Origin: Candidatus Poribacteria bacterium
GTDB taxonomy: Bacteria > Poribacteria > WGA-4E > JAJDTR01
DNA length: 64,000 nt
Assembly: GCA_965222225.1 (NCBI GenBank)
Contig: CBDCTK010000002.1
Span: 2,464,001 to 2,528,000, forward strand
Reading direction: 5' to 3'
The first letter of the stretch is position 1. Each line of letters opens with the position of its first letter. The notes under the pieces were generated by a model. That model searched no databases. It was given only the letters and a program-made list of their open reading frames with translations, and was not told where the DNA came from. A program made the position numbers and the translations under genes. This document shows positions 47,016-56,010 of the stretch, in pieces.

Positions 47016-47795
47016 CTACTGCCCCTTCAAGGAAGCCCACGTGGTAGCCAGTTTGCCACTCGGCTCCACCGCCTGTTTTTGGGATTTCATCAGATTGTTT
47101 AGTTCCTTTTCACTCAATGCCCTGCGGTATATCCTTAGTTCATCGATAACACCTTTAAACGAATGGGCACCTATAGCCCAAGGCTGGGAGCCGACAACGA
47201 GGGACACACCTGTTTTAGCAATGGGTTTTCCCCCTGTTTGTAGACGTCTGTTTTCCTCGCCGTTTAGCCAAGCGGTCAGAGCCTTTTCCTTCAGACTATA
47301 TGTCCAGGCTAGATGAACCCACTCACCAGTGGGAACCGCATCCTTTCCTTCGAACGTAAGATAGCGTTTGTCTACATCCTGAAATTCAGGATACATCTGG
47401 TGACCGTTGCCGGATACGCCGCAGACCCAGCCCTCAAGGACGCCGAAACGGCCTTCCGCTTTTCCGACTAACTTGAAAGGATAAGGGGCGTCACCGTTAT
47501 CGAATATCCACGCGGCAGCCGTAAGCTCATCTGGCTCCAGATTATCGGCATGCTGAACGACAATACTACCAAAGGGAGACCTGAGTTCCAAACCACCGTT
47601 AAATTTTCCTCCAACCCACTTGACTGTCCCTTTGAAGGTCCCGTTATTTTTATTGCCGGAACGATCTCGAACTTCATCCCCGGCGGCCTCATCAAAGCTA
47701 AAGTAAAGACTCAAGGATTTATCTTGAGCCGACACGGCGGCGGTTAACATTATACAGGATAACCCGATTGCCGAAGTAAGAGTCAGGATTCTCAT
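47016..47795 (-). CDS. secreted LamG/concanavalin A-like domain protein
   Basis: LYFSFDE, WVHLAWTY, GVIDELRIY; ends AVEPSGKLATTWASLKGQ. Confidence 0.85.
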   Translation of the reverse strand: MRILTLTSAIGLSCIMLTAAVSAQDKSLSLYFSFDEAAGDEVRDRSGNKNNGTFKGTVKWVGGKFNGGLELRSPFGSIVVQHADNLEPDELTAAAWIFDNGDAPYPFKLVGKAEGRFGVLEGWVCGVSGNGHQMYPEFQDVDKRYLTFEGKDAVPTGEWVHLAWTYSLKEKALTAWLNGEENRRLQTGGKPIAKTGVSLVVGSQPWAIGAHSFKGVIDELRIYRRALSEKELNNLMKSQKQAVEPSGKLATTWASLKGQ

Positions 47796-48035
47796 TGTTG
47801 TGTCAGTGTTATCCAGACCGTATTGAGTTCAGGGCTGCGATTTCGCATACCGTGCCTGATTCCCGATTGCGTTCATCAAGAACTATACCACCGATGGTCA
47901 CAAGTATCATTCTGCAAGGAGCTCATCAATGAAACAAGTGAGTGGTGAATGGTTAGTGGGCTTTTTCATCCGCTACTCACCGCTCGACCACTCACTTGTC
48001 ATCAAAAGGCTCCATTTACCGCTGTTTAAGGAATA

Positions 48036-48207
48036 ATACCATTTCTTTAGATTCGCAGTGCATTATAGGCATCAATCAAGTCTCTCCAATGCGGGGCAAG
48101 AGGATCTCTATCGCATTCGCTATTCGCTCATTTGATTCCCGCCTACGGAGAATGTGAAGAATATAACCGATACATCATAATGCACTATTATTCAAGCGAA
48201 ATGGAAT
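48036..48207. mobile_element. MITE family A copy carrying a 35-bp micro-element (48101-48135)
   Basis: ATACCATTTC...GAAATGGAAT ends; the micro-element splits the internal palindrome. Confidence 0.65.
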
Positions 48208-48238
48208 AACCATCAGTATCAAAACACCTGCCAATGGC

Positions 48239-49036
48239 TTACTTAGTCTTCAGGGAAGCCCACACGGTAGCGAGCTTGCCGCTCGGCTCAACGGCAGTCG
48301 GGCTATCCATGAGAGCCATTATCTGATCCTGAGTGAGTGCATCGTCGTAGACTGCAACTTCATCTACAACACCGTGATATCCATGGGCTCCCGGATTCCA
48401 GGGCTGGGCGCCTATAATGAGACCCAACTCACCCGCCGTGTCGAAATTTGTCCTGATCGGCTTTCCCGGGATGTCTCTAGTGTGGTGGACCTCGCCGTTT
48501 ACCCAACCGGTTAGGGTCTTTTCCGCTACGCTATACGTCCAGGCAAGGTGAGCCCACTCACCAGTCGGGATAGCCTCAGGCCCTTGGAACGAAATGGGAT
48601 TGAGATCCGTATCCTGGATTTCAGGGTACATCACGTGACCGTTACCGGATATACCACAGACCCAGCCTTCGAGGACGCCGAAACGACCTTCTGCTTGTCC
48701 TATCAGCTTGAAAGGATAGGGGGCGTCGCCGAGGTCGAAGATCCATGCGGCTGCAGTCAGCCCACCAATCTTTAGGCTATCGGAATCCTCGACCCGGACA
48801 TGGCCTTGTACAGGGTCAGCAAAGAATTCAAGCGCGCCGCCAAAGCCATCTTTTCCGGCAGTCCACTCGGATTCTCCCATGATGGCCCCATTATTTCCGT
48901 TGCCGGAACCATCTGTCACTGTATCCCCTCCACCCTCATCAAAGTTGAAGTAGATGACCAGGTTTTGAGCCGCCGCAGTAGAGGTTAACATCAAACAAGC
49001 TAACCCCGCTATGAGTGTAAAGACTAGACACTTCAT
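48239..49036 (-). CDS. secreted LamG/concanavalin A-like domain protein (paralogue of 47016-47795)
   Basis: Shares AEGRFGVLEGWVCG with its neighbour; ends AVEPSGKLATVWASLKTK. Confidence 0.85.
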   Translation of the reverse strand: MKCLVFTLIAGLACLMLTSTAAAQNLVIYFNFDEGGGDTVTDGSGNGNNGAIMGESEWTAGKDGFGGALEFFADPVQGHVRVEDSDSLKIGGLTAAAWIFDLGDAPYPFKLIGQAEGRFGVLEGWVCGISGNGHVMYPEIQDTDLNPISFQGPEAIPTGEWAHLAWTYSVAEKTLTGWVNGEVHHTRDIPGKPIRTNFDTAGELGLIIGAQPWNPGAHGYHGVVDEVAVYDDALTQDQIMALMDSPTAVEPSGKLATVWASLKTK

Positions 49037-49471
49037 TTGTTGTTCTCCTTGTATAACATGTTTAGTGAACGATGCCATCTTTCGCGAAATAAAATTGTGC
49101 AATGGTTTTTTCATACTAAATCTTGTAGTATACACCCAAATCACCTAATTCGCGGCTAGATTTCAAGGTCGAGTTTGTCTCAGTAGCGGGACATATAAGG
49201 CATTATATACAAGATTTGGTATGTCCTAATTTGACATTATACAATTCCATTACGCGGAAGGTTAGAACAGTGGTGACTTAGACACAGATTGTCAACAGAA
49301 AATAGTGGACATCGGCGTGTAGTTCGTTTTCTGCACGACGCCCGTTGTTAAATGAATTCCTCAAGCGATCTGTTGCAAGAAAACGCTTAAAGCATTGAAC
49401 CTTGTTCTTCCCTGGCTTGTGAGGCCTACTTCCACAATTCTCACCCCCTTGTTTCCAATTCAACAATAAAC

Positions 49472-49518
49472 AAAAAAGGCGTCTCCGAAGAAGCAATCAA
49501 ACTCCTTCAAAGACGCCT
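49472..49518 (-). terminator. intrinsic terminator-like hairpin
   Basis: AAGGCGTCT...AGACGCC stem followed by T6 on the minus strand. Confidence 0.55.
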
Positions 49519-50456
49519 TATTGACGCGGTCACAAAAAATTCCCTTCGGGGCGAAACTCTCCTGCTCCGAACATTCGGTGGTGGTAGAGAGTTTTGGAAT
49601 TTTTCTAAATGAACTAGATTAGGAGACCATAAAGCCATTTTTCCTCCGGAAAGAACTTTAGGTCATTATACAATCAAGAGATTCGGGCGTTATACATCTT
49701 TTCAGATTCCTTGTCGATCAATTAAAATCGCTAAATCAGTCATTTTCGGCTTTTCAGAGCTAGATGTGGAATGCTGTAACGGCTCGGTATCGGAAGAGCT
49801 CAAAGTCGCGAAATCCAGAGGCCTTGCCGGATCGGGACAGGGCGGCGTTTGATGAGGTTGATTTTATTGTTGATGCCTTCGGCGATGCCGCTGGTCGTGC
49901 GGTGACAATAGTAATTGGCGATTTGGTCAATCCAGTTTGCTAGCGTCCAGCGGAAATTCGAACAGAGTCCCGCTTTCTCAGCTACGAAGGACCACTTCCG
50001 CAGCCACTCGATTGCCTTCTCTTTCGTCAAATTGCACTCAACGATATGCTGCAGACAGTCATTGAGTCAATGAGCCGTCTTGACCAGAGGAGACACCTGA
50101 TAAACGTGTTCCCCGATAGATCGGGGGCTGCTTTTCGGTTAGTCGTCCTGGTTCTTTTGCTGATTCTTTAACTGCTTGAGTTCCCGGTTGACCGCCTGCA
50201 TCACATGAAACCGGTCGGCGGTAATCGTCGCCTAGGGCAACAACTCGGCACACACAGTATCATAGGGACTCCACATGTCGATGACGACTTCTTGAATCTG
50301 TGCGCGCTCGAAAGCCGATAGCTGTTCAAGTCGCGCCCTGAGTTTCTCTTGGGTTCTCGCTTTGAGGAAATCGACGACTTCTTTCATGTCCAGATTCGTC
50401 AGAATCAAGGCGAAGTCCCCTTTTCCCTTCCGCAACGCAATTTCATCAATACCCAA

Positions 50457-50528
50457 CGGAGTCTCTATCGATTAACCGACCGAATAGGGAGGGCAATAGA
50501 TAATCCTGCTCGCTATCCGCTCGGTTGA
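50457..50528. mobile_element. nested micro-elements (36-bp - copy 50472-50507 inside a 36-bp + copy)
   Basis: Removing all 72 bp restores ISL3 LKR|LGIDE. Confidence 0.85.
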
Positions 50529-50813
50529 ACGTTTGAGATTGGCAACGGGGGTTAAGGGGATGCGACATCTCGTTTCGTGGAGGGAGATGCTTTCAATCTG
50601 GCCATAAGTCAACCCTTCAGTGCTGGGTACCGCGCTGATGTTGTTCTCTCGAACTTGGTGGAATATCCAATCTTGGTAACGATGGGTGTAATCGCGTCGC
50701 TCGTCGACAAAGCCGAAGGATTCGGAGAAGGCACCTTCGCAGTCTTCACGGAAGAATCGACGGAAATTAGTCAGCTTGCCACAGTGAGAGCATACCGCCG
50801 TCTGAGATGCCGA

Positions 50814-50849
50814 TCAACTGACTGAATAAGGAAGGCGATAGCAAATCCT
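50814..50849 (-). mobile_element. 36-bp micro-element in the ISL3 remnant
   Basis: Reverse complement AGGATTTGCTATCGCCTTCCTTATTCAGTCAGTTGA followed by TC. Confidence 0.8.
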
Positions 50850-51001
50850 GATAGAGATCCCTTCACTGTCCCATGAAATCCTATCTAGACCAACCTCGGC
50901 AGAAACTACCTGGTAGTTGGGAATGTCGATTCGTTGAATTATAGTCATTGTGATTAAGAATTACACATATGGGATTTACTTGGTTCGGTTTGTAGTAGCA
51001 A

Positions 51002-51036
51002 TCAAGGGAGCGAATAGCGACTGCGATAGAGATCCC
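51002..51036 (-). mobile_element. 35-bp micro-element
   Basis: Reverse complement GGGATCTCTATCGCAGTCGCTATTCGCTCCCTTGA. Confidence 0.8.
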
Positions 51037-51116
51037 TTGTGCTACAAAGGTATGACTTGCCCCATCCCTAAAGGTGTTTCAGAGGCTTTGTAACAACCAG
51101 TAATTCTGATAATGCT

Positions 51117-52193
51117 CTATAGTAATTTTGAGAATCCTTCTTTTACTGTTGCCTTAGTCGTAAGGTCAACAAATATGAAGTTTTTGCACAAGGGTTTAAA
51201 AAGTGGAACTTCGTCAATAAATTTTCTGTGCCACTTATCCCCAGATACAAATGTAATACCCTTGTGATACGTATAAAGCAAGTATTCAGCATCTCTAAGG
51301 ACGTTTTGGGGCGCTGCATTTTCGGAATTCTCACGAAGGTAGAGCTGAATTGTGTAAATCCATATCGCTGCTCTGAGTGCGTATGGTGCGAATCTATTGA
51401 TAGGCGGCATATCTTCCTTCAGAAACCTGTTAAAGATCTGGGTATGTTCTTCTGGCGTAAGTATAGGATCGAATAGCCTACCTAGCCGCTGTAATTTATC
51501 ATATGCAGCACTGCGATCGCTCGAATCATGGTTGAGTAGGCTTGCAGCTACTTGATTTGCGTTTTCCAGAGAATCTGCCTTATATGTATCAAAGAGTGTT
51601 TTGATGGATGTTTGGAAGAGTTGTTTGCCTTCCCGCAGAAAGCCTTCGGTTTCTACTTTTTTTAGAATGCGTTCTATCTCTGGATAATACGTTTGGTTTG
51701 CTCTCAGGACCTCTTTTAACCTGTTCACCCACTCTTTTTCAGAAAGATTGTCTGTATTTTTAAACAAACCCAACAATCCTTCTTTCAACGGATTGATTAT
51801 AGAGTCCAGATTTCTATAAAACTCTTCGCTTTCTTTCAGCATCTCTATGGTTTCACTTGAAGCTTCCTTGAACTCCAAAAGTTCTTGTTCCGAGCATTCG
51901 CGAACTGACTTCATTGCGTTTGCACTTCCGATAGGTAAGGGTTTAGCGGATTCCTCTGTAAGCAAGTCCATTTTTGCGTATTCCGACCAATGGGGAATCC
52001 AGATGATATTTTCTAGATTGAGGAGAGCATTATGCCTTTTTAGCCCATGTCTAGCAACTTCAGTGAATAGGATTGATGGACAAAGGATTGTGTATCTGGA
52101 AACTAATGCCTCACGTTGTTCACGATCTAAGGACATCCAAAATGATTTGTCCGGTAGCAAGAGGTTGCTCTGATTGTTCATCGTCATGTGCAT
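51117..52193 (-). CDS. AT-rich hypothetical protein, possibly a PIN-like fold with a large helical insertion
   Basis: N-terminal LLPDKSF and C-terminal RDAEYL...FVSGDK acidic motifs. Confidence 0.5.
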   Translation of the reverse strand: MHMTMNNQSNLLLPDKSFWMSLDREQREALVSRYTILCPSILFTEVARHGLKRHNALLNLENIIWIPHWSEYAKMDLLTEESAKPLPIGSANAMKSVRECSEQELLEFKEASSETIEMLKESEEFYRNLDSIINPLKEGLLGLFKNTDNLSEKEWVNRLKEVLRANQTYYPEIERILKKVETEGFLREGKQLFQTSIKTLFDTYKADSLENANQVAASLLNHDSSDRSAAYDKLQRLGRLFDPILTPEEHTQIFNRFLKEDMPPINRFAPYALRAAIWIYTIQLYLRENSENAAPQNVLRDAEYLLYTYHKGITFVSGDKWHRKFIDEVPLFKPLCKNFIFVDLTTKATVKEGFSKLL

Positions 52194-52214
52194 CTCCGTT
52201 TATTTGACTCCGTT

Positions 52215-52415
52215 CTAATTTGCTTCGGCATCCTCCCCCTCCCTTTTGTCCTGTTCAGCAAACAGTGCATCCGCAATTTCCGTGAGCGCCTCATCTGTTA
52301 TAGGTGAGAAATTCAACAGAGCCACCTGCTTTATGATTTCAGAGGTTATCGCATGTTTTTCAATCCGAGGGAGTTGGTTGAATGCTTCCAATATGTTTTG
52401 TGGGGTTGCGTGCAC
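52215..52415 (-). CDS. small acidic antitoxin-like protein
   Basis: 66 aa, GGAGG RBS, ILEAFNQLP...TDEALTEIADALF. Confidence 0.5.
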   Translation of the reverse strand: MHATPQNILEAFNQLPRIEKHAITSEIIKQVALLNFSPITDEALTEIADALFAEQDKREGEDAEAN

Positions 52416-53038
52416 TGGGACCTCCGTGTAGCAAGAGCGTAAAGTTTATGCGAATTATACACGATGCCTTGACGAAATTTAAGGTTTCTCTACATTCCAA
52501 TAGAGCCATCTAATTTTTGGTTCCCTGTCGGTGGTCTAGTGTGAGTCGCGATTCAGCGACCGCGCCGAAGGTTCAACCGATTTAACTTCACCATTAAGTC
52601 AAATTATGGCTAAGAAGTCGCGACCTAGAGCTCGCTCCTACAGAGGACGGGAAATGAACTGCGATACTACAAACCGCACAACGTAAGCCCCGAACGTATA
52701 ATTCTTAGTTTCAATGACTATAGAAATGTACTGCCATCGGAAATTTAGACCATTATCTTAAACAAGATTATGATACAATTTCCAATCGGATTGAAAGGAG
52801 ATTCCGATGGCTAAACGAAGGAAATTCACGCCCCAATTTAAGGCTGAAATTGCTATTGAAGCACTTACCGGTCAAAGTTCACAAGCGGAACTTTGTCGGC
52901 GGCATAACCTCAGCCAAGAGCAACTATCAAAGTGGAAACACCAACTTCTTGACAACGCGGCGACTCTCTTTGAATCCACTGACAAGCAATCTAACGACCA
53001 TAGGGAACGGATTGCTCAACTGGAGCAACTCGTTGGGA

Positions 53039-53073
53039 TCAAACGAACGAATAGTGAGTGCGATAGAGATCCC
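53039..53073 (-). mobile_element. 35-bp micro-element in IS3 orfA
   Basis: Removing it restores LEQLVGILSLALDIQKKASTLLN-stop. Confidence 0.9.
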
Positions 53074-53457
53074 TATTGAGCTTGGCGTTAGACATCCAAA
53101 AAAAAGCCTCGACTTTGCTCAATTGAATTGGTCTCAAAAACGACAGATGGTTGAAGCTTTGCACACCGATTACCCGGTTCGACACATTTGTGATGTACTC
53201 GGCTTCAATCGGAGCAGTCTGTATTATCAACCGAGGCACGACCCCATTGAACTTGAGCTACGAGACGAAATTGAGAAACTGGCAGCCCGTTATCCGAAAT
53301 ATGGCTATAGGCGTATCACCCAGCTACTGTTGCGAATGGGGTACTCTGTCGGTTATCGACGCGTTGCTCGATTGATGAAAGCAGAGAATCTTTCGGCAGC
53401 CGTAAAACGTACTTGTCAAACTACCAAATCGTTTGACGGCTGCGGTCAATGGGGGAA

Positions 53458-53492
53458 GGGAACTCTATCGCCCTCCTTATTCAGTCGGTTGA
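53458..53492 (+). mobile_element. 35-bp micro-element in IS3 orfB
   Basis: Removing it restores GQWGNRLENLDI and joins ORFs 52850-53593 and 53449-53997. Confidence 0.9.
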
Positions 53493-54071
53493 TCGGCTTG
53501 AGAACCTTGACATCTGTCGTCGAAATCAGGTTTGGGTCGGTGATATTACCTATGTCCGACTCAAAGAGCAATTCGTCTATGTTTCGGTGTTAATGGACGT
53601 GTTCACCCGAATGATAAGAGGTTGGCGACTGAGTCGGCACTTGACAGAACCTCTCACATTGAGACCGTTGCAACAGGCATTAAGCCAAAGCGTTCCGGAA
53701 ATTCACCATAGTGACCAAGGGGTTCAGTACCTTTCGAACGCTTATATCTCCACTCTCATTGGTCATGGAGTTGAGATTTCCTTAGCTCATAGGGGGCGTC
53801 CTTGGGAGAACGGTTATGCCGAAAGGCTTATCCGAACCCTCAAGGAAGAAGAAGTCCACCTCAACGAATACAATGATATAATGGATGCCAGAGAGCGAGT
53901 CGGTCATTTTATTGTAAAAGTCTATAACCAGAAACGATCTCACTCGGCGTTAGGCTATTTGACGCCGGTTGAATTTGAGCAACAATACTTGTCTTAACTT
54001 TGCTTATTTGTGGTCTAAATTAGCGTTGGCACTTCAAAAAGATTATGACGCGTTCCGCGAAGCAGTAGAAG

Positions 54072-56010
54072 ATGAATAGGGCGAACAGGATGTCCCCCGG
54101 CATTACCTGGAAATCCATAGCTATAACGATCGCCTTAATTCCATTCAACTTCTATTGGATAATTGCTGGTGAAGTGGGACTTGTCGGATATGCTCTGAAC
54201 ACCTACGCTGTCCCATTCTACAATGTCATATTTTCTGTATTTGTGCTCGTGCTTCTGAGAGTTATCGTAAAAGGGACTCTCGGCGTTTCCATCCTTGACA
54301 ATGCGGAACTGCTTACCATCTACATCCTATTGAGCGTAGCCTGTGCCCTCCCCTCAATAACTTTCATGACGCTCTTGGTTACGAGCGTAGGTCACGCTTT
54401 CTGGTATGCAACTCCGGAGAACGAGTGGCAGCAACTGTTCTGGAACTATCTCCCCGACTGGCTTGTCGTTAAGAACAGGAGCGTTCTGGGCGGTTATTAT
54501 GAGGGAGAGTCAACCTTATACACGCTTTCTCATGTCAAGGCTTGGCTACAGCCGGCAGCATACTGGACGATATTCACCACTTGCCTCATATTCGTGATGT
54601 TGTGTATAAACTCGATCTTGAGGAAGCGATGGATCGAGCGCGATCATCTGGCTTATCCTGTCACACAGATCGCCTATCAATTAGCCTGCAACACCAACAG
54701 GCTCTTCTCCAGCAAGATGCTCTGGATGGGGTTTGCGGTAGCCGCCTCGATAGCTATCATTAACGGGTTGAGCTTTCTGTTTCCCGCCATACCCACCATC
54801 CCAGTAAAACGAGCCGGCAGTTGGCACGGCATCGGTCATCTATTTACAGAAAAACCGTGGAATGCCATCGGCCACATCAGCTTCTCATTCTACCCGTTTG
54901 TCATCGGTCTCGGTTTCCTTATGCCTCTGGATCTTGCATTCAGCAGTTGGCTCTTCTTTCTATTCTACAAGGCGGAGCTGATACTCACCAGCGCTCTGGG
55001 CATAAACATACCCGGATTTCCGTATCACAATGAGCAATGCTTCGGAGCGGCAGTAGGTATATGCCTGACACTTCTAATCTACAGTAGGAAATATGTATTC
55101 GGCGTTTTTAAGGCAGCGTTTACGAATAGCCCCATGGATGATGAAGACGAACCTGTGGGATACAGATTTGCCATAGTGGGCATCATTCTGGGATTCGCTT
55201 TTCTCGTTATGTTTTCTCTAAAGATTGGGATGTCTCCCTGGCTCATTCCCATATTCTTTGCCATCTACTTTGTCATATTACTCGTGATAACCAGAATGCG
55301 CGCCGAGCTGGGTTTCCCTGTTCACGCCATGGAAAATATGCCAACTTACGGCATCTTGACAGGTTTAATCGGGACGCGAACTCTCGGGGCAAACAATCTC
55401 GTAGCGCTATCACTTTATAAGTGGTTCAACAGAAGTTTTACCAGCAATTCGATGCCGCATCAGATGGAGGGGTTTAAACTGGCTGACAGGTCGGGGATCA
55501 ACACTAGAAGGTTGTTTTTTTCTATCATAGGAATAACAACTCTAGGTTCAGTCACCGTGTTCTGGGTCATACTCCATTCATTCTATAAAGTCGGTGCGGT
55601 ATCGGGGGGGCGGAGGCGGTTGGTCCCTGCATTTTGGATGGTATGTATATGACGGGCTAAAGAACTGGCTTTATTCCTCGACGGAACCCAACTATTACGC
55701 TGTGGGGGGAATGACTTTCGGTTTGCTGTTCTCGCTTATACTGACGTTCATGAGGTCAAGGTTCCCTTTCTGGCCGTTCCACCCCATCGCTTTTGTGATA
55801 TCCGGTGATTGGGGCATGAAATACTTATGGAGTTGCATGTTGGTCAGTTCTGTCGTAAAATGGATGGTGCTGAAGCTTGGAGGGCGAAGAGCATCGCAGC
55901 AGCTTGTCATCTTTGCCATCGGTCTTATGCTTGGCGATTTCATCATAGGCGGTTTATGGAGCCTGCTTGGAGTATTCACAAAGACGCCAATGTATAACTT
56001 CTGGCCATAG
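54072..56010 (+). CDS. DUF6785/DUF6784-like polytopic membrane protein with a +1 frameshift
   Basis: Full-length paralogue of 20947-22896; one extra G in the G7 run at 55604-55610. Confidence 0.8.

Follow-up and report, generated by a model that had tools for sequence, protein, structure and literature searches.

A 35-nt hairpin mini-element of Candidatus Poribacteria with two insertions in a single IS3 copy

Among the smallest mobile DNAs are reportedly SDR1-8 of Nostoc punctiforme and its relatives, ascribed to Elhai et al. 2008, with units of 21-27 nt for which an RNA route is said to have been proposed. These repeats are tiny and without coding capacity, form hairpins maintained by compensatory changes, insert into repeats and into themselves, and are confined to one clade. 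Repetitive extragenic palindromes (REP) and their inverted doublets (REPIN) are imperfect palindromes of 20-40 nt, present in hundreds of copies, largely extragenic and folding as a single strand (PMC3733652, PMC6006769, PMC3116915); REPs carry a GTAG or CGTC tetranucleotide tag at one end (PMC3733652). Insertion sequences (ISs) of the IS200/IS605 group (background in PMC6006769), such as IS608 and ISDra2, leave no target duplication, insert 3′ of a short specific sequence, recognise hairpins and are oriented with replication. Here we describe a non-coding mobile DNA of 34-36 nt, with no gene of its own, which has the features just listed for SDRs, for REPs (the tag apart) and for IS200/IS605 elements in common with them and is itself a high-copy, mostly extragenic palindrome within the 20-40 nt range. 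Two of its copies, I1 and I2, lie in an IS3-family insertion sequence within the window, the 64,000-nt stretch G000:C2:2464001-2528000 of a Candidatus Poribacteria genome (G000; 5.70 Mb in two contigs, C2 being the contig concerned; 50% G+C).

The IS3 itself is ordinary; the agent that broke it is not. An initial annotation, made from the sequence alone, described an IS that retains its terminal inverted repeats, an AAA duplication, an A8G slip site and DDE motifs and was knocked out by two 35-bp insertions, opposite in orientation and different in sequence. The ends, the flanks, Pfam searches and related copies all upheld this description (Table 1). The inverted ends run TG...CA (left repeat TGTACTGCCATCGGAAATTTAGACCA; reverse complement of the right repeat TGAAGTGCCAACGCTAATTTAGACCA; about 21/26 identical, read by eye). 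AAA stands on both sides where the empty site of the sister species G005 has a single ACA, in keeping with the 3-4 bp duplications of the IS3 family, and related copies have 3-bp duplications of their own (AAG, GTC, TTT). In addition to HTH_Tnp_1 in orfA, the pieces of orfB match HTH_21 (1.2e-13), rve (1.6e-20) and rve_3 (1.2e-15). VWVGDITY, HHSDQG and NGYAERL contain the catalytic-motif D, D and E, with 36 residues from the second D to the E in the translation; a DD(35)E signature and an orfA/orfB −1 overlap at an A-rich slip site are thus both present, in frames that the inserts interrupt. An intact relative (L002) has an orfA of 105 codons and an orfB of 313 codons in the usual −1 arrangement. 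In the window copy, I1 truncates orfA, with a stop at 53077-53079, and beyond I2 the reading of orfB continues in frame 1 instead of frame 2. This is a defective copy, unable to make its own transposase.

The best 80 loci encoding relatives of the transposase all came from metagenome-assembled genomes of Candidatus Poribacteria, which makes the host a sponge-associated poribacterium, and most showed approximately 70-90 gap positions against the window copy, as expected of an IS without both inserts. Thirteen foreign copies were aligned; 12 lacked both inserts at the exact sites, one (L006) had I1 only, and nine were 1240 bp long. Empty sites were therefore seen for I1 and for I2, the related copies do not all carry the 35-mers, and deleting each 35-mer restored colinearity with the intact relatives. 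When both are read in element orientation, I1 and I2 differ at 7/35 positions, six of these being compensatory changes in three stem pairs, and they score 38.2 and 34.3 bits against the family profile. Since their stems differ and their orientations are opposite, I1 and I2 are independent events, and both are genuine insertions of one element family. Only one mini-element copy was found within 402 kb of foreign IS3 loci. Contigs of four sequencing runs showed high depth on both inserts and empty-site forms of related IS3, in pieces too short to address polymorphism of I2 at the locus.

The family was counted by an iterated nhmmer profile over G000, giving 1054 copies, of which 813 are full-length and most 34-36 nt. 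Its pattern is TCAA-NNGANNGAATANNGANN-GCGATAGAGATCCC, with a fixed head (TCAA), a fixed tail (GCGATAGAGATCCC) and the consensus TCAA NN GA NN GA ATA NN GA NN GCGATAG AG ATCCC; head and tail positions are 94-100% conserved. Between them sits a 17-nt hairpin in which four Watson-Crick pairs are interleaved with conserved sheared-type G.A/A.G mismatches. Watson-Crick pairing is seen at 5-21 in 70% of copies, at 6-20 in 91%, at 9-17 in 93% and at 10-16 in 84%, where the marginals predict 30%, 39%, 36% and 49%, and pairs 7-19, 8-18 and 11-15 are nearly always G.A or A.G. The folding energy of I1 and I2 with their flanks was no better than that of shuffled sequence (z −0.49 and +0.33), and the insert hairpin is therefore detectable only through co-variation. 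The 'perfect stems' assigned to the inserts in the initial annotation are perfect only in the four Watson-Crick pairs between the G.A mismatches. G-T pairs (254+31+33+140+329) greatly exceed A-C pairs (roughly 120), which indicates that one particular strand folds. The stems of 1034 copies fall into 230 different combinations, and the 1054 copies comprise 837 distinct sequences; the stem bases are almost free to vary provided that they pair, and this free co-variation points to recognition of the stem by shape rather than by sequence.

Templating of the stems by the target was considered and rejected, as mutual information between stem and flank was at most 0.10 bit against 0.48-1.17 bit for true pairs; neither did the 5′ flank (−1 to −7) co-vary with the 3′ end of the element (33 to 39). 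Rfam 15 gave no match at the element copies in 47500-54500 (7 kb, five copies) at E values up to 1. The copies are dispersed and irregularly spaced and their stems differ, which sets them apart from CRISPR repeats. A miniature inverted-repeat transposable element is also a poor description: the target is not duplicated, target bases take part in the GGGATC/GATCCC pairing, and no parent IS was found. A 28-letter family pattern matched 407-971 times in each of 10/10 genomes of the window genus (g1) and 130-156 times in each of 4/4 genomes of g4, a genus of another family; one other genome had 2 matches, 26 others had none, and the reversed control gave 0. HIP1 (GCGATCGC) was not over-represented in G000, with 117 found against approximately 172 expected, and a cyanobacterial origin was rejected on this ground.

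The element has a defined target and an odd junction. Position −1 is G in 528/590 copies and position 0 is A in 566/590; landing is 3′ of G, preferably in GSGA (G(C/G)GA). Nested copies show what the target looked like before, as 124/813 copies lie inside another copy whose halves rejoin to a normal element on removal, and iterative peeling recovered 811, 84, 3 and 1 elements in successive rounds. Nested insertions fall after host positions 19 (37), 23 (33), 12 (25), 18 (8) and 17 (5) and after a reverse-strand CG (13). An A precedes TCAA where the uninterrupted host has C or G in 31/33 insertions at host position 23 and in 13/13 of the reverse class. Ten copies in GTAG-tagged REP hairpins convert GTAGGGTGCG-CAC-TGCGCACC into ...GCG-A[element]-TGCGCACC; in the hairpin beside a Y1 transposase gene, discussed below, CG is replaced by the element; and in two protein families four bases are replaced, for a net gain of 33. 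Because nested copies, REP loops, Y1-gene hairpins and protein families agree, the junction rule is that no target is duplicated, an A is gained and 1-4 target bases are lost after the G.

Landing sites are often the loops of other hairpins, be they GTAG-tagged REPs, other repeats or copies of the element itself. Stems of 6 bp or longer flank 11% of sites, compared with 3.2% of control SGA sites (3.4x), and 191/802 sites are within 16 nt, on the 3′ side, of a GTAG tag. The GTAG-tagged REPs of this genome form a family with 322 counted heads (GTAGGGTGCGCACTGCGCACCA, plus a variant with GGG/CCC; for example the flanks of window positions 48101-48135) and are a favoured landing site. Among neighbours less than 100 nt apart the orientations are ++ 119, −− 69, +− 19 and −+ 6, and spacings of 35-38 and 41 nt are over-represented. 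Head-to-tail pairs of the mini-element with a 41-nt period occur at C2:2721241-2721321 and C2:2713340-2713381 of G000.

Locally, the C-rich strand carries the hairpin strand in 725/1051 copies, and in 382/526 where the skew is strong. Across 53 blocks of 100 kb, orientation and GC skew gave a Spearman rho of −0.55 (p 2e-5). Genes correlate positively with the skew (rho +0.51), and we therefore take the G-rich strand to be the leading one. The bias persists when ++ and −− gene contexts are taken separately; relative to neighbouring genes, 336 are co-oriented vs 303, and copies occupy all three kinds of intergenic region (divergent, convergent and tandem). GTAG REP heads have the same polarity as the element, with 242/322 (75%) on the C-rich strand. 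Because orientation tracks GC skew and not transcription, these data point to a single-strand, replication-linked process and disfavour a role at the RNA level. The cumulative GC skew of C2 switches sign many times without forming two replichores, and the orientation of the element switches along with it, which suggests many inversions or assembly joins.

Set against the known systems, the element departs from each of them in some features. Compared by description and not by sequence, it differs from SDRs in its length (35 nt vs 21-27 nt) and host phylum (Poribacteria vs cyanobacteria), in its tandem G.A stem mismatches, GSGA target and loss of 1-4 bases, and in a replication-strand bias that argues for DNA where an RNA route was proposed for SDRs. 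The likeness to REPs extends to the genome, as G000 contains Y1 genes and, besides, true GTAG-tagged REPs whose strand polarity matches that of the element. The head of the element, however, is TCAA after GSGA, with no GTAG or CGTC in the consensus, it inserts into genes and into REP loops, and no cognate REP-associated tyrosine transposase (RAYT) flanked by the element was found. Only 25/213 close neighbours are inverted, so that, in contrast to the inverted doublets of REPINs, it occurs as single units, nested or as direct neighbours. IS200/IS605 elements have two subterminal hairpins, insert 3′ of a fixed tetranucleotide with precise junctions and carry their top strand on the lagging-strand template; the present element has a fixed 5′ context and no duplication but a single central hairpin, and the lost target bases and gained A are further differences. 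Yeast mitochondrial GC clusters (PMC4478555) are likewise short mobile hairpin DNAs that can land inside genes, and hairpins (REPs) also serve as insertion targets for IS1397 and ISPpu9 (PMC12288879); those two are full insertion sequences with transposase genes, and all three systems differ from the element in host, sequence and size.

Copies of the element are found largely where they do no harm. Long open frames (at least 80 codons) lie on both sides of 20/899 sites as against 1592/3000 random sites. Density is 0.713 per kb in unique DNA outside open reading frames (ORFs) (775 in 1.086 Mb), 0.019 per kb in the long ORFs of unique DNA and 0.102 per kb in repeated or IS-like DNA (repeats of at least 300 bp; 45 in 443 kb); inside repeats it is 0.014 per kb in ORFs (5 events) and 0.44 per kb in the non-ORF part. 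Two inserts in 1.24 kb are unremarkable, approximately 0.9 being expected at the non-ORF rate (Poisson P ~0.2). The initial annotation had offered two readings of the clustered insertions, neutral accumulation in dispensable DNA or preferential targeting that would silence ISs. The first fits the avoidance of ORFs and the densities across the genome; the second finds no IS excess in the same genome-wide comparison and, because density is lower in repeats and ISs than in unique non-ORF DNA, is unsupported. The pattern is that of a parasite filtered by selection, not of a device aimed at insertion sequences.

Nevertheless, 18/811 copies are read through in long ORFs. In-frame insertions add 11-12 residues to a tyrosine recombinase/integrase (C2:460879-460914) and to members of a dockerin-type protein family (C2:3738219-3738253; further sites at C2:2910572-2910606 and near C2:3940000), and paralogues of the integrase and of the dockerin-type protein are without these extra residues. 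At C2:2910572-2910606 the frame is additionally broken by a 2-nt deletion right after the element. Two paralogues that share only ~60% in their upstream halves have an element of 100% identity, which suggests gene conversion. At C2:2921274-2921308 an element in reverse orientation is read through (GITIALPIRSLDP) in a frame that is open for at least 700 codons upstream and at least 833 downstream, these being the limits of the scan.

The two inserts have different histories. The same I1, stems included, was found in the second IS3 copy of G000 (C2:4078620-4079930), which lacks I2 and where position 12 of I1 is followed by a nested element of 36 nt, and also in two copies of G015 and one of G027, genomes of genus g4 and thus of another genus and family than the window genome. 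The I1-bearing copies occupy different loci, at least five in three genomes, and G015a has an AAG duplication of its own; between copies I1 differs by only 1-4/35 bases. I2 was seen only in the window copy when this was compared with the second G000 copy and related IS3 copies, and no I1-free full-length IS3 copy was found in G000. As G005 retains the empty site, the IS reached this locus recently, after the split from G005. Moreover, because I1 is common to copies at other loci and in other genomes and G005 has the empty site, the IS most likely arrived with I1 already aboard. The initial annotation had placed both insertions after the arrival of the IS, and this finds no support for I1, while I2 is private to the window copy. 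The syntenic regions of G005 and G001 have diverged too far for filled intergenic sites to be aligned base by base with empty orthologues.

The I1-bearing copy of G027 has its closest relative in G015c, which is free of I1, and the IS3 copies are therefore mosaics. Among I1-bearing copies the C-terminus of orfB has a dN/dS of 0.11-0.18 (dS 0.35-0.54), a weak test in mosaic copies. Purifying selection was accordingly dropped as proof that I1-bearing copies work, the copies being mosaic and I1 nearly identical between them. We suggest that I1 was already in the IS3 when the IS multiplied and spread, probably aided by intact sister copies, and that I2 would have struck the window copy later.

Overall, we think it rather probable that the element is of the REP/SDR kind, a single-strand element that is non-autonomous, coupled to replication and dependent on a host enzyme acting in trans; nothing suggests that it seeks out ISs. 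Its moving form would be a folded single strand handled during replication, since only one strand has G.T wobbles and orientation goes with the GC skew and not with transcription. A host-encoded enzyme would act on it in trans, with a Y1 HUH transposase of the REP/IS200 kind as the leading candidate. Copies persist where they are harmless, in intergenic DNA, in dead mobile elements and in a few genes with an in-frame net insertion. Y1_Tnp genes occur in 34/41 genomes of the order, with five matches in G000. One of these encodes 157 aa (C2:3080258-3080725; locus L091 2255-2728, minus strand), with the HUH motif DHIHIL and the Y motif YIKNQEAHH, and has three mini-element copies within 210 bp, on both sides and in inverted orientation. 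The protein resembles subclass 1.2 of Quentin et al. 2018 (PMC6006769). In its orthologues at L095-L105, inverted copies of another hairpin, AAAGCCCCAGNGGGGCGACAGGTG, flank the gene in four genera, sometimes as tandem arrays upstream; the same paper has subclass 1.2 generally without terminal hairpins, so this pairing may be worth a look.

Several points weigh against this explanation. In every genus the 157-aa Y1 gene is flanked by its own, different hairpin AAAGCCCCAGNGGGGCGACAGGTG, into which the 35-mers are inserted; because of this, the closeness of element and gene is probably a side effect, and the neighbourhood was ruled out as proof of a mobiliser. The phyletic match is also wrong, as homologues are present in 7/7 genomes of g6, where the element is absent, and none was found in 2/4 of the element-bearing g4 genomes. 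The gene for a class-2 RAYT-like protein (247 aa; within C2:2563962-2564705) has no element copy within 3 kb. An added A with the loss of 1-4 target bases is not known from IS608-type Y1 enzymes. The polarity of the element, with the hairpin strand C-rich and on lagging-strand sequence, is the opposite of that reported for IS608 and ISDra2, as is its relation to the GC skew when compared with IS608. Furthermore, mobility is read here from sequence comparison, the direction of replication is deduced from a patchy GC skew, and the strand bias could also stem from selection after insertion.

The junction could instead reflect an undescribed insertion chemistry, in which a single strand defined by its shape, with stems free to vary and recognition confined to the geometry of the G.A-studded hairpin, would enter exposed hairpin loops on the lagging-strand side of the replication fork after a G, replace 1-4 bases and always bring an A. 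We know of no transposase class, Y1 HUH included, that leaves such a junction. This version is possible but doubtful; if true, the element would rank among the smallest DNAs that propagate themselves and would do so by a new mechanism.

Between an enzyme and none, the HUH enzyme is a first guess and its main rival is template switching on the lagging strand, which we regard as unlikely. Here no dedicated transposase would be involved; a nascent strand, probably the lagging one, ending in G would stall at a hairpin, copy an element from ATCAA and return a few bases downstream. Such a process would account for the variable 1-4 bases replaced, the A added after G and the lack of duplication, for the enrichment of sites in hairpin loops and for the presence of the hairpin strand on lagging-strand sequence in 69% of copies, and it agrees with the fact that none of the Y1_Tnp genes compared has the phyletic pattern of the element. 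Yet both ends are sharply defined in more than 800 copies, which sequence-specific cleavage explains more easily, nothing forces a polymerase to stop at TCCC, and the confinement of a thousand copies to two genera implies a lineage-specific factor.

An RNA intermediate, with the unit transcribed, folded as RNA and copied back into DNA, appears quite improbable. Its wobbles are G.U-compatible on one strand only, tandem sheared G.A pairs are a common RNA motif, and a contig from an RNA library covers the IS including part of I1, which is not in itself proof of transcription. Against this, orientation tracks the GC skew whichever way the neighbouring genes run, and no Rfam family matches the 7-kb stretch with its five copies. 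We consider it very improbable that the hairpins are functional cis-elements, kept as terminators, mRNA stabilisers or protein-binding sites, with the IS hits incidental. The structure is indeed conserved with compensatory changes and ~98% of copies are intergenic; however, they occur in all types of intergenic region without co-orientation to the flanking genes, nest in each other and in other repeats, break or lengthen genes, and are dispensed with by related genera. Least credible of all is IS silencing, a mini-element aimed at transposase genes or selected for inactivating them as genome defence: the window has five copies in or next to two adjacent insertion sequences, and an integrase (C2:460879), an IS3-like gene (C2:1604347) and a putative transposase with an N-terminal HTH (C2:3229976; names from translations) are hit, but the densities given above, including the few events in repeat-borne long ORFs, run the other way, what the element targets is a short SGA motif, preferred within hairpin loops and unconnected with IS sequence, non-mobile genes are struck too, and the I1-bearing IS3 went on to multiply.

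Table 1. Features of the window that bear on the two inserts and the neighbouring insertion sequences (window positions)
Feature	Position	Strand	Remark
Decayed ISL3 transposase gene, two DDE_Tnp_ISL3 pieces	49800..50456	-	N-terminal part to ~50950
Mini-element inside ISL3 gene	50472..50507	+	family profile
Mini-element (36 nt) inside ISL3 gene	50814..50849	+	family profile
Mini-element in palindrome loop beside ISL3	51002..51036	+	family profile
IS3-family insertion sequence	52727..54036	+	1310 bp; 1240 bp minus both inserts; empty site kept in sister species G005
Left terminal inverted repeat, TG start	52727..52752	+	ends conserved in 15 related copies
Right terminal inverted repeat, CA end	54011..54036	+	
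3-bp target duplication AAA, left copy	52724..52726	.	right copy 54037-54039
orfA, truncated	52807..53079	+	77 native codons, 13 I1-derived codons and stop; HTH_Tnp_1 E 2.4e-15
Insert I1, 35-nt hairpin mini-element, old, common to other IS3 copies	53039..53073	+	
A8G slippery run, -1 frameshift from orfA to orfB	53098..53106	+	conserved in relatives
orfB part one (HTH_21), frame 2	53093..53457	+	
Insert I2, 35-nt hairpin mini-element, private to window copy	53458..53492	-	
orfB part two (rve/DDE core), frame 1 owing to I2	53493..53997	+	

The ISL3 next to the IS3 (window 49300-51300) is badly decayed, with two or three mini-elements, a gap at DDE profile positions 75-164 and several frame changes. 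Three insertions had been assigned to this IS in the initial annotation; two are inside the transposase gene, and the third is outside it, in an adjacent palindrome. An ORF of 358 aa that separates the ISL3 from the IS3 (window 51117-52193, minus strand) has no Pfam match and is conserved in G005 at 88.6% DNA identity. A long palindrome at window 47924-48008 gives only weak hits to two miRNA precursor families of Rfam, on both strands and far below gathering scores, and is probably another repeat.

In the literature on Poribacteria repeats we found no description of a 35-nt family, the SDR-type literature found being cyanobacterial and on REPs only. The element is a 35-base hairpin without a protein, present in hundreds to roughly a thousand copies per g1 genome and in fewer in g4, two genera of sponge symbionts. 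It creates frameshifts and apparent pseudogenes, which annotators of Poribacteria genomes should recognise. Moreover, it extends very small mobile DNA, which we know only from some cyanobacteria, to another phylum, and offers sharper handles on mechanism in its defined target and odd junction, the free co-variation of its stem and its clear strand bias.

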